DNA of 34,190 nucleotides from a virus. Its lineage: Duplodnaviria > Caudoviricetes. Position numbers and translations under genes: made by a program. Each line of letters begins with the position of its first letter. Position 1 is the stretch's first letter. Below the pieces are notes generated by a model. That model was not told the origin of the DNA. It did no database searches and saw only the letters and a program-made list of their open reading frames with translations. The stretch covers positions 1 through 34,190 of the IMG/VR virus record IMGVR_UViG_3300020042_007960; one strand, written 5' to 3'. Positions 14,901 to 32,739 of this stretch are shown in pieces.

Positions 14901-14984
14901 GCCGAGGTGGTGAAATGGCATACACGTTAGCCTTAGGAGCTAATGACGCAAGTTGTGAGGGTTCGACTCCCTTCCTCGGCACCA
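14901..14984 (+). tRNA. tRNA-Leu(TAG)
   Basis: GCCGAGG/CCTCGGC acceptor stem, TTAGC-CTTAGGA-GCTAA anticodon arm, long variable arm, TTCGA, encoded CCA. Confidence 0.93.
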
Positions 14985-15028
14985 CTGGTAGCAAAAGCTA
15001 CCAAATAACTCAGTATAGAAGAGGTTTT

Positions 15029-16363
15029 ATGCGTTTTAAAGGTTTGTTGCTTTGTGTAGTGCTTGCAGTTTTGTGTGCGTGTGGCGCTCCAGCCGTTGTG
15101 GTTACACCCACTAATGTTCCTGATAATCTACCCGCAGCTCCTACAGCAACTATTGAAGTAGAAATCCCAACAGAAATCCCGACAGAAATCCCGACGGTAG
15201 TCCCAACAAAGGTTCCAACGGAAATCCCAACAGAAATCGCCACAAACATTCCTATTGCGACTCCTACTACAGTAGTTACGAACACCGTAGTTCCAACTGC
15301 GGTAATTATCCCAACGGCCACAACTGCTCCAGTAGCAGCGGTTACCGAATGGGAGCCACGACAATTGACTGCGAAGTTGGTTGGCTCTGGTGCAAGTTTC
15401 CCTAACCCATTGTACCAAGTATGGATTGCAGTGTACACGAAGAACGTCGTTCCTGGTGTGCAGTTAAGTTACTCTAGTGTTGGTTCGGGTCAGGGTCAGA
15501 AAGACTTTATTGCTTACTTGACCGACTTTGGTGGGTCTGACTCAGCAATTAAATCGGGCGATGTTACTACCAAGGCTCCAGACGCAATTCACTTGCCAAT
15601 GGTCATGGGTGGTGTCATGCCGATGGCTAACATTCCTGGTATTAAAACAGGTCTGAAGTTTACTCCAGAAACTCTCGCCGGTATTTATCTAGGTGCAATT
15701 ACTAACTGGAATGACCCACGTATCGCTCAAGATAACGCAGGTGTTGCTCTCCCAGACTTGGCGATTACTCCGGTTTATCGCTCTGACAGTTCAGGTACGA
15801 CGTCAATTTGGACTGACTACCTAAGCAAGGTCAGTGCGGATTGGAGGGCCAAGGTTGGTTCTGGTAGTGCTGTGAGTTTCCCAGCGGGTATTGGTGCCTC
15901 TGGTAACGCCGGTGTTTCAGCAACAGTCCTTAATACCAACGGTGGTGTTGGTTATGTTGAAGTTGGTTACGCCTTAGCGGCCGGCTTCCCACTACCATTC
16001 GTCAAGAACGCCGCTGGTAACTTTGTCAAGCCCGAAACTGCAAGCGTCAGCGCCGCTGCTACGGGTTTGAATATCTCGTCCAACCCACAAAAGTTGGCTA
16101 CGTCTATCACAAACAGTGCTTCTGCCGACGCCTATCCAATTGCAGCATTTACGTATGTTCTTGTTCGTCAATCGACCTACACGGATGTAGTTAAAGCGCA
16201 GGCCCTGTCAGACTTCCTTTACTGGGGTTTGACCACGGGTCAGGGAGCAACAGTCCGTTTGGGCTATGCACCACTTCCCGAGGCAATGCGCCAAGCTTCA
16301 ATGAAAGCACTTAAGACTGTTGCAGTCAATGGTCAATCAGTACTGGACGCCCCAGTTAAGTAA
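15029..16363 (+). CDS. pstS: Phosphate ABC transporter substrate-binding lipoprotein PstS with Pro/Thr-rich linker
   Basis: Lipobox-like LCAC; (PTEI)n linker; 'GSGASFPNPLY', 'VGSGQG', 'DFGGSD', 'RSDSSGTT', 'GYVE', 'YPI'; true start ATG 15029 behind GAGG. Confidence 0.95.
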   Translation: MRFKGLLLCVVLAVLCACGAPAVVVTPTNVPDNLPAAPTATIEVEIPTEIPTEIPTVVPTKVPTEIPTEIATNIPIATPTTVVTNTVVPTAVIIPTATTAPVAAVTEWEPRQLTAKLVGSGASFPNPLYQVWIAVYTKNVVPGVQLSYSSVGSGQGQKDFIAYLTDFGGSDSAIKSGDVTTKAPDAIHLPMVMGGVMPMANIPGIKTGLKFTPETLAGIYLGAITNWNDPRIAQDNAGVALPDLAITPVYRSDSSGTTSIWTDYLSKVSADWRAKVGSGSAVSFPAGIGASGNAGVSATVLNTNGGVGYVEVGYALAAGFPLPFVKNAAGNFVKPETASVSAAATGLNISSNPQKLATSITNSASADAYPIAAFTYVLVRQSTYTDVVKAQALSDFLYWGLTTGQGATVRLGYAPLPEAMRQASMKALKTVAVNGQSVLDAPVK

Positions 16364-32276: not shown

Positions 32277-32408
32277 TGGTGGAGATGGAGAGAATCGAAC
32301 TCTCGTCCAGAACTATTGTCACCATCTAAGGTAACGGTTTTTCGTGTCTCTGTAAAGGCAGTTATCACTACTTGACCATACATAGCACTGTCAATACCTG
32401 GCATCCCC
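32277..32408 (-). ncRNA. Miniature tmRNA-like RNA (132 nt; tRNA-like domain intact, central region much reduced)
   Basis: 5' GGGGATG-CCAGGTATTGAC; 3' GGAC-GAGAG-TTCGATT-CTCTC-CATCTCC-ACCA; G3.U70 pair and A73. Confidence 0.8.
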
Positions 32409-32417
32409 GTATATTAG

Positions 32418-32486
32418 TGTCACTGGTAGGAATCGAACCTACGTCCTGATTCTTACGAATCTTCCCGACCACTGGGCGACAGTGAC
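32418..32486 (-). ncRNA. tRNA-like RNA with a GNRA tetraloop in place of the anticodon loop
   Basis: GTCACTG/CAGTGAC stem, CCC-AGTGGTC-GGG D arm, GATTC-GTAA-GAATC, GTAGG-TTCGATT-CCTAC. Confidence 0.75.
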
Positions 32487-32489
32487 AAA

Positions 32490-32571
32490 TGGTCACTCTG
32501 TGAAGAATCGAACTCCACACCACAAAGAAGTAATTCCGGAATTCCTTCTAAGTCCGGCACCAGCCAAAGCG
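32490..32571 (-). ncRNA. Third tRNA-like RNA (acceptor stem + T arm + CCA, atypical middle)
   Basis: CGCTTTG/CAGAGTG-A-CCA, TGGAG-TTCGATT-CTTCA, AGAAG..CTTCT long hairpin. Confidence 0.6.
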
Positions 32572-32693: not shown

Positions 32694-32739
32694 AGTATAC
32701 CATGACTTTGTCTAAAGTAAAATGAGAGAATGATTAATC
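32694..32739 (-). promoter_or_regulatory. Cassette promoter P12 (drives the tRNA-like cluster)
   Basis: GATTAAT-N4-CTCTCAT, 22 bp, TATACT preceded by TGG. Confidence 0.75.

Follow-up and report, generated by a model that had tools for sequence, protein, structure and literature searches.

A long ring, by which the message is threaded into the ribosome, is generally regarded as indispensable to tmRNA; in the full-length molecule it wraps round the head of the 30S subunit. A tag-less phage tmRNA is already known: that of mycobacteriophage DS6A is entered as 'TLD only' (tmID 11587, Phage__Mycobacterium.9; PMC4131195 Table 2; PMC11915505). The TLD-only RNA of DS6A is cited in both sources as inhibiting endogenous tmRNA in E. 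coli, perhaps through titration of SmpB (PMC4131195). Nine standard CDS-less tmRNA genes are counted among 97,179 in PMC11915505, which also records natural two-residue Ala-Ala tags in 25 tmRNAs and names Nasuia and 9FT-COMBO-53-11 as possibly without tag frames. Passages of PMC9004378, PMC10542128 and PMC7824862 concern phage ssrA in its full-length or two-piece forms, defence domains resembling SmpB, and RNA repair; short forms are not their subject.

The window analysed here, a whole virus record of 34,190 bp, carries a 132-nt gene whose RNA resembles that of DS6A in being phage-borne and one-piece, with a G3.U70 acceptor, a stemless D loop, helix 2 and a T arm, and with neither ring nor degron. 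The DS6A RNA totals ~83 nt and has one interrupted hairpin inside helix 2 (an A-rich bulge or stretch before GCA, and a hairpin capped by CACG), whereas the window RNA has three inner helices. Its conserved 60-nt inner domain, which DS6A lacks, combines an AGUA/GAA internal loop with a loop of 19 nt that holds a canonical resume signal; the RNA is more than a DS6A-type RNA, defined as little more than a TLD with no mRNA-like element. Its family differs further in that half or more of the homologues encode a five-codon peptide followed by UGA, and in being found in host chromosomes also. The CDS-less tmRNAs of mitochondria and Mallomonadaceae plastids, and possibly those of Nasuia and 9FT-COMBO-53-11, are short and tag-less like the window RNA (PMC11915505), but each is its genome's only ssrA, whereas members of the window family occur in phages and, in hosts, as an addition to a normal ssrA. 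What appears to set this family apart is a structured loop that keeps the resume signal, together with its presence in hosts. In the literature searched, which took in few subscription journals and not the curated tmRNA database, no ringless tmRNA was found described as having a conserved resume loop.

Sequence features and surroundings of the 132-nt gene

An earlier sequence-only reading had claimed an intact tRNA-like domain and proposed a search with RF00023. Both were borne out. The gene has the 7-bp acceptor with G3.U70, discriminator A (A73) and CCA, the stemless D loop, helix 2, the GAC linker and the T arm of a standard tmRNA, and cmscan matched it to RF00023 at both model ends (E 6e-24; score in Table 1, gathering threshold 47). 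Missing from it are the pseudoknot ring PK1-PK4, the usual length of ~350 nt, and a tag frame with a stop and a non-polar degron of the Ala-Ala type. Exactly 60 nt lie inside helix 2, as the earlier estimate of about 60 nt without room for pseudoknots had it; they fold as three nested or adjacent helices, with no PK1-PK4 pairing. The tRNA-like domain is held in common with standard ssrA (RF00023), including that of Roseiflexaceae (363-366 nt, tag AKNISAPSFARTTAFAA), and with full-length phage tmRNAs, but the window RNA is ~230 nt shorter than standard ssrA, has no PK1-PK4 or H5 and no tag ending in Ala-Ala, and its stop is dispensable. On its sequence, 32277-32408 (-) is classed as a tmRNA-like gene that is ringless and without a degron tag.

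ARAGORN did not call the gene and reported six tRNAs elsewhere in the window; since this gene was missed, the class is probably under-annotated. Three other identities were rejected. A permuted (two-piece) tmRNA was ruled out by the standard order of the TLD halves and a merely partial, 23-bit match to RF04321. A tRNA-Ala was ruled out by the lack of a D stem and of a 7-nt anticodon loop, by the silence of ARAGORN and by an RF00023 score above that for RF00005. The AGUA/GAA element beside a codon presumably resembles T-box stem I, but the bases 3' of GAA vary, GCC lies in a separate loop, and no T-box match was obtained up to E 10.

Table 1 Features of the mini-tmRNA gene and its surroundings in the window
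Feature	Position	Strand	Basis
Mini-tmRNA gene, 132 nt	32277..32408	-	RF00023, 66.3 bits; family model R1, 132 bits (by construction)
Acceptor stem, 5' strand GGGGAUG (G3 of G3.U70)	32402..32408	-	Sequence; G.U in 20/20 family rows
Acceptor stem, 3' strand CAUCUCC, discriminator A73, encoded CCA	32277..32287	-	Sequence
Stemless D loop CCAGGUAUUGA, ending in GA	32391..32401	-	RF00023 match and family alignment
Helix 2, 5' strand CAGUGCUAUGU	32380..32390	-	Both-side changes in 9/10 pairs across the family
Helix 2, 3' strand ACAAUAGUUCUG	32308..32319	-	Family covariation
T arm GAGAG-UUCGAUU-CUCUC, preceded by GAC linker	32288..32304	-	Both-side changes in 4/5 pairs
Inner helix P3, 5' strand (partner 32335-32338)	32375..32378	-	Both-side changes in 4/4 pairs; 85% of cells paired
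AGUA facing GAA (32341-32343)	32369..32372	-	GUA in 20/20, AGUA in 19/20
Helix P4 (3 bp), 5' strand GUG (partner CAC, 32344-32346)	32366..32368	-	100% of cells paired
19-nt loop AUAACU-GCC-UUU-ACA-GAG-A, closed by P4	32347..32365	-	Consensus fold
Resume signal AUAACU and resume codon GCC (32357-32359)	32357..32365	-	Nine bases same as Roseiflexaceae ssrA; column conservation
Codon 6 of the resume frame, CGA here	32342..32344	-	UGA in 11/17 in-register homologues
Hairpin P5, UACC-UUAGAU-GGUG	32320..32333	-	Both-side changes in 2/4 pairs; missing in 3 shorter rows
Upstream tRNA-like RNA, 4-nt GUAA loop replacing the anticodon loop; probably co-transcribed	32415..32486	-	RF00005, 42.6 bits; fold
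Possible third tRNA-like RNA, 82 nt, 7-bp acceptor without G3.U70, T arm, ACCA (weak)	32490..32571	-	Pattern scan
Promoter-like site with TG-TATACT, repeat family D10, upstream of the cassette	32694..32721	-	5 sites against 2.9 expected (weak alone)
G+C-rich palindromic repeat just downstream, family D1, 13 copies in the phage arm	32242..32268	.	Repeat search

Other genes of the window encode a tail fibre, primase, DnaB, PolA, a RecA-like protein, ThyX, PstS and a glycosyltransferase. The best named relatives of PstS are from Roseiflexaceae (89% and 68-69%), the closest of them perhaps on a phage contig binned into a MAG; judged by sequence, the host is probably a freshwater member of the Roseiflexaceae. 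The gene for PstS, a phosphate-binding protein (14915-16363, +), Roseiflexaceae-like and with a Pro/Thr-rich linker, lies amid six tRNA genes, and as its ORF is called beginning inside tRNA-Leu, the true start is probably further downstream.

The mini-tmRNA gene sits third in a row of tRNA-like elements in the small-ORF arm. A tRNA mimic with a GNRA tetraloop also adjoins the mini-tmRNA in a second phage, L357 (9324-9391, +), where the loop reads GUGA; this element and that at 32415-32486 are read from sequence as anticodon-less tRNA mimics. The 82-nt candidate at 32490-32571 had no Rfam tRNA match and no homologue was found for it; its tRNA-like fold is less stable than the MFE structure by 4.3 kcal/mol. 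Two phages, L357 (9159-9320, +) and L068 (3092-3253, +), have immediately downstream of the mini-tmRNA a 162-nt tRNA-like RNA with an acceptor stem, a long branched insert with a common AUCCCGACGGGGA-type hairpin, a T arm and ACCA; the L357 copy matched no Rfam family at the gathering threshold. Between 24200 and 33900 of the window, the 13 palindromes (GGGGTAGGGGGTCCCCCTACCCC type) and promoter-like modules of the form CTCTCAT...TGGTATAAT partition the small-ORF arm into cassettes, and palindrome and promoter-like motifs likewise flank the mini-tmRNA gene in L179. Three contigs from one RNA run match the last 30 nt of the gene only and then continue into other sequence.

Inner fold, resume signal and optional stop

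The family was aligned as 20 distinct sequences of 126-134 nt (alignment A1), with duplicates removed and one truncated copy and two longer related rows set aside. Half of the rows (ten) were recovered by scans that ignored the inner sequence; the other ten were picked up by a pattern that includes TAACYGSCY and so the resume signal itself. The RNAalifold consensus consisted of the acceptor, a 10-bp helix 2, P3, P4 with its 19-nt loop, P5 and the T arm, with P3, P4 and P5 recovered unaided. In the alignment 97% of cells were paired, 23 of 33 pairs were altered on both sides, and covariation was seen in all six helices; P4, for example, appears as GCG/CGU, GUG/CAC, AUG/CAU or GAG/CUU. The covariation score was 0.49, against 0.18 for shuffled alignments, a contrast inflated by relatedness, and at most 0.12 for slid ones. 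The element between P3 and P4 has the look of what we take to be a bulged-G (loop E) motif.

In the window copy helix 2 contains one U.U and one bulge, and the strand folded alone gave a z of -1.85, with 13 of 200 shuffles as good and an MFE structure different from the consensus; the structure is based on covariation in homologues and not on single-sequence folding. Single-sequence folds also produced a competing hairpin, GUAG/CUGC, in which the resume signal would be masked; it was rejected, as it has no covariation and is broken in L023 and in L293-type rows. Far from being leftovers, the 60 inner bases are predicted to form an arm that bears the resume-signal loop at its end, plus a hairpin. 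The first reading of this region had rightly noticed the resume context, but had overlooked the conserved structure that holds it and was unaware of the DS6A precedent.

The nine bases AUAACUGCC equal the resume site in three full-length ssrA genes of Roseiflexaceae/Chloroflexota. Every one of the 20 rows has U(-5), A(-4), A(-3), G(+1) and C(+3), a pyrimidine stands at -1 throughout, and -2 is variable; the resume codon is GCC in 17 rows and GGC (Gly) in three. The same pattern holds in the ten rows from scans blind to the inner sequence, and over 17 rows identity was 0.96 across the resume signal against 0.53 across the next loop codons. This agrees with the resume-signal rules as given in PMC2481249 (U85, A86, purine 87, free 88 and pyrimidine 89), and the window copy likewise has these bases before an Ala/Gly resume codon. 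In the translocated state, resume-signal bases are described as held by Tyr24 and Tyr55 of SmpB (PMC8363625).

Translation of three frames confirmed that the resume frame of the window (AFTETRKTVTLDGDNSS...) has no stop, and that the +1 and +2 frames stop at UAG (codon 11) and UGA (codon 13), as had been claimed. The lack of an in-frame stop held for the window copy, but not for the family: in 11 of the 17 homologues in register, UGA follows five codons, and the remaining six have CGA. The UGA copies encode polar five-residue peptides such as AFTET, AHGKT, AYKQT, AFNAT and AFSET. Of the A1 rows outside the 17, one has a +1 insertion leading to UAG at codon 3, and two are divergent and out of register. 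The first base of codon 6 is the P4 partner of G41, so the U/C switch is a change between a G.U and a G-C pair; about four such changes are needed on the A1 tree, which is poorly resolved, and the difference may have one origin. C-to-U editing, or a stall at CGA serving as a hidden stop, was rejected: CGA accounts for 47 of the 7143 codons counted in the phage, and pairing explains the U/C change. Among 21 loop-bearing representatives of the wider class described below, in-frame stops numbered 6, against 9 and 10 in the other frames. Selection does not maintain a complete tag frame, because in-frame stops are unenriched and CGA replaces UGA in 6 of 17 rows, and the stop codon is optional in the family. 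A separate subfamily of 109-111 nt (L118, L127, L136, L149, L151 and L307, the last in a bacterial MAG) has a resume frame reading AQV and then UAA, UGA, CAA or AAA; there, too, the stop comes and goes at the loop end.

Distribution in phages and bacterial chromosomes

The search for similar short versions that had been proposed yielded 19 other distinct homologues of 126-134 nt, 51-93% identical to the window sequence, from independent samples of phages, metagenomes and Roseiflexaceae/Chloroflexota chromosomes. The four phages nearest by a neighbouring marker protein (70-74% identity; four of six loci) all have the 133-nt form. In five of five phage relatives, three of them at least 90% complete, this form was the sole tmRNA match, which argues for a conserved gene and against the one-off deletion from a full-length ssrA, or assembly collapse, that had been named as a way the claim might fail. 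No smpB was found in the same five relatives, so host SmpB would be used. An exact 19-nt pattern of the 5' end had no matches in IMG/VR; BLAST against cultured phages and plasmids gave short matches to the T arm and 3' end only, and matches in Stenotrophomonas phages were rejected as relatives, being full-length tmRNAs. A scan with ATAACNG (68 loci) added no member to the 133-nt family and returned mostly full-length, permuted or unresolved genes.

A pattern requiring the tRNA-like ends only matched 36 IMG/VR loci, 25 of them short one-piece genes with all seven acceptor pairs and no longer alternative. Minis made up 14 of 112 matches in a metagenome scan, and 28 of 44 matches in a genome scan passed the filter; all scans together gave 102 distinct sequences of 65-165 nt. 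L292 and L294 (runs of N), L305 (ending in N), L282 (cut) and L309 (poor pairing) were dropped before class counts. Closed resume loops were scored by a detector requiring an A-rich stretch, GCN, then Y and A/U, all within a loop of 16-23 nt, with the strand that closes the loop beginning 12-15 nt past the G; it replaced a looser version that had been positive in 35 of 73 shuffled sequences. A closed resume loop was found in 21 of 37 unrelated cluster representatives (about 106-165 nt), against 2.3 +/- 1.6 in shuffles (at most 8 in 500), a contrast inflated by the detector having been written after most sequences had been seen, and 2 of 23 in the short class. The strict detector also misplaces or misses loops visible by eye (L035, L204, L023 and most of the 109-112-nt group), and by eye the smallest members have a 14-15-nt loop closed with two further pairs. 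As an outside check, a pattern built from AAGGCSCAY and the 3' end, leaving the 5' end free, matched 12 loci, seven known and five new; four of the new loci (three distinct sequences) were minis with a closed resume loop, and one of these, L381, has AGUA/GAA, a 3-bp helix and an 18-nt loop as in the window. GCN is the best conserved codon. IMG/VR phages and metagenomes also hold 29 distinct TLD-only RNAs of 65-103 nt, of the DS6A type with one hairpin inside helix 2 (L107-L162 and others).

In a search of 61 Roseiflexaceae-family genomes with family model R1 (55 candidates scored per genome), at least five strong copies were found in at least three genomes. Each of the three copy-bearing genomes has a full-length ssrA, smpB and RqcH and only two release factors; an ArfB-like third release factor was not found in these three host MAGs, which gave two RF-1 matches each. 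The chromosomal copies adjoin cas6e, cas1/cas2, cmr5/cmr6 and APE2256-CARF genes and a DUF499-DUF1156-SNF2 cluster, and a Clp protease-like gene, Pfam-confirmed at this one locus only, lies directly downstream of the G001 copy. Copies of another subfamily in Anaerolineae precede an HNH gene, one of them after rtcB (RtcB). One Roseiflexaceae MAG (G003) has three near-identical copies (L282, L295 and L312) on three contigs, two of them beside CRISPR genes; these may reflect a strain mixture in the bin.

In a Patescibacteria family (G005, G064-G072), 6 of 10 MAGs have only a 133-137-nt ssrA-like form (L306, L316, L305, L281, L288 and L346), which is flanked by ftsK and alaS at each of the five loci read. 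Its helix order is that of the window RNA, but whereas the window family keeps the resume codon, this WWE3-type loop has no GCN codon. A gene for SmpB was found in none of the ten MAGs (0.4-0.7 Mb, completeness not given) but in 105 of the 111 genomes that make up the remainder of the class, making the family a candidate lineage without canonical trans-translation. L306 (WWE3 RBG_19FT_COMBO_53_11, 133 nt) is very probably the 9FT-COMBO-53-11 entry of PMC11915505.

Proposed function and competing explanations

Two functions had been offered by the sequence-only reading, an SmpB sponge and a tag-less ribosome-rescue RNA. The second fits better, because bases contacted by SmpB only after translocation are conserved and full-length ssrA accompanies the intact copies in host chromosomes. 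We put at about even the chance that the window gene encodes an abbreviated, SmpB-dependent rescue RNA that would add a few non-degron residues and no host degradation tag. By analogy with trans-translation chemistry, host AlaRS would charge the mini-RNA through G3.U70 and A73, and host SmpB and EF-Tu would deliver it to a ribosome that has stalled on truncated mRNA. There it would accept the nascent chain, and the broken mRNA would be ejected on translocation. SmpB would grip the UAA upstream of GCC and so set GCC in the A site, and the chain would pass to tRNA-Ala at this codon, freeing the mini-RNA. The ending is the least certain step. In UGA copies whose P4 opens, RF2 would release a product ending in the polar five-residue peptide; in CGA copies, including that of the window, translation would exhaust the loop or continue to an end without a stop, and a second route would be needed, either host tmRNA or splitting followed by RqcH/Pth. 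The phage would gain recycled ribosomes and, through competition for SmpB, fewer host-tagged proteins. What selection retains is alanine identity, the SmpB-binding domain and the bases that set the frame after translocation; the ring, the degron and the obligatory stop are dropped. Several findings count against the rescue reading: no smpB was found in the Patescibacteria family, whose RNA shares the helix arrangement although its loop is without GCN; host tmRNA in E. coli is inhibited by the RNA of DS6A (PMC4131195, PMC11915505); no third release factor was found in the three host MAGs; and stops are unenriched.

The same inhibition speaks for the role proposed for DS6A, that of a decoy or jam, which we regard as possible but rather unlikely here: SmpB, and perhaps EF-Tu or AlaRS, would be titrated, or stalled ribosomes would be entered and blocked, and host trans-translation would be lowered, with the resume loop only tightening the ribosome-bound complex. 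The unconserved stop, the common occurrence in phages of the loop-less TLD-only forms and the position of the gene in a cassette of the small-ORF, promoter-repeat arm are in keeping with it. A free sponge, however, has no need of a frame signal from -5 to +1, jammed ribosomes would harm phage translation too, and intact copies persist in chromosomes that have their own ssrA and smpB; with these genes intact beside them, and with defence genes, or in other subfamilies HNH and RtcB genes, as neighbours, a helpful role after RNA damage fits the host copies better than a poison. We think it unlikely that the RNA is instead an alanylated tRNA mimic independent of SmpB, its loop binding another partner through resume-like bases inherited from tmRNA as a binding motif, and serving as a decoy for defence nucleases that cut tmRNA or tRNA, or as an alanyl donor. 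The Patescibacteria MAGs with the short form only and no detectable smpB would fit, as would the anticodon-less mimic flanking the phage gene, the 162-nt RNA in two relatives, the defence genes around chromosomal copies, and the small GC-CCAN-GY hairpin that many loops could form, set beside the A-rich bulge and CACG-capped hairpin of DS6A. But that hairpin cannot form in the window copy, the invariant and free positions of the window family are those of the SmpB frame signal, and the smpB-less lineage is the very one without GCN in its loop and is known from small MAGs of unstated completeness.

Very unlikely, in our estimate, is a minimal tagger that adds only the charged Ala and the Ala of GCC, with release by splitting and Pth and a C-terminal Ala-Ala degron promoting proteolysis. 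GCN is indeed the best conserved codon, natural Ala-Ala tags occur in other tmRNAs (PMC11915505), the hosts have RqcH and the G001 copy has its Clp protease-like neighbour; however, GGC (Gly) stands in 3 of 20 members, no stop follows GCC, and the Clp-like gene is confirmed at that single locus and lies beside none of the phage copies examined. That the gene is a functionless decayed ssrA, integration-site remnant or assembly collapse is barely credible: the U.U and bulge in helix 2, the frame without a stop and the fold of the single sequence, only weakly better than shuffles, are what such a remnant might display, but the 19 independent homologues, the covariation in all six helices and the short form as the only one in five of five phage relatives already largely refute this reading.

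The rescue reading can be extended to a widespread, unannotated ringless class of ~107-146 nt in phages and chromosomes, though in this general form it is tentative and rather doubtful. Such RNAs would carry out trans-translation from a closed loop of 14-21 nt on which SmpB would set the resume codon, with one to five codons read, no ring or degron and often no stop, and one Patescibacteria family would have lost smpB and retained the fold as sole ssrA. In phages and in the defence regions of hosts, the window family presents a tmRNA reduced to a third of its length whose frame-setting signal stays on a loop that hardly varies in size. The published short phage form has been read as a plain inhibitor, and the form with a resume loop differs from it. 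As natural minimal constructs, the mini-tmRNAs may reveal the purpose of the ring and of the stop codon and whether rescue can be separated from proteolysis, and they bear on how phages use or subvert trans-translation.
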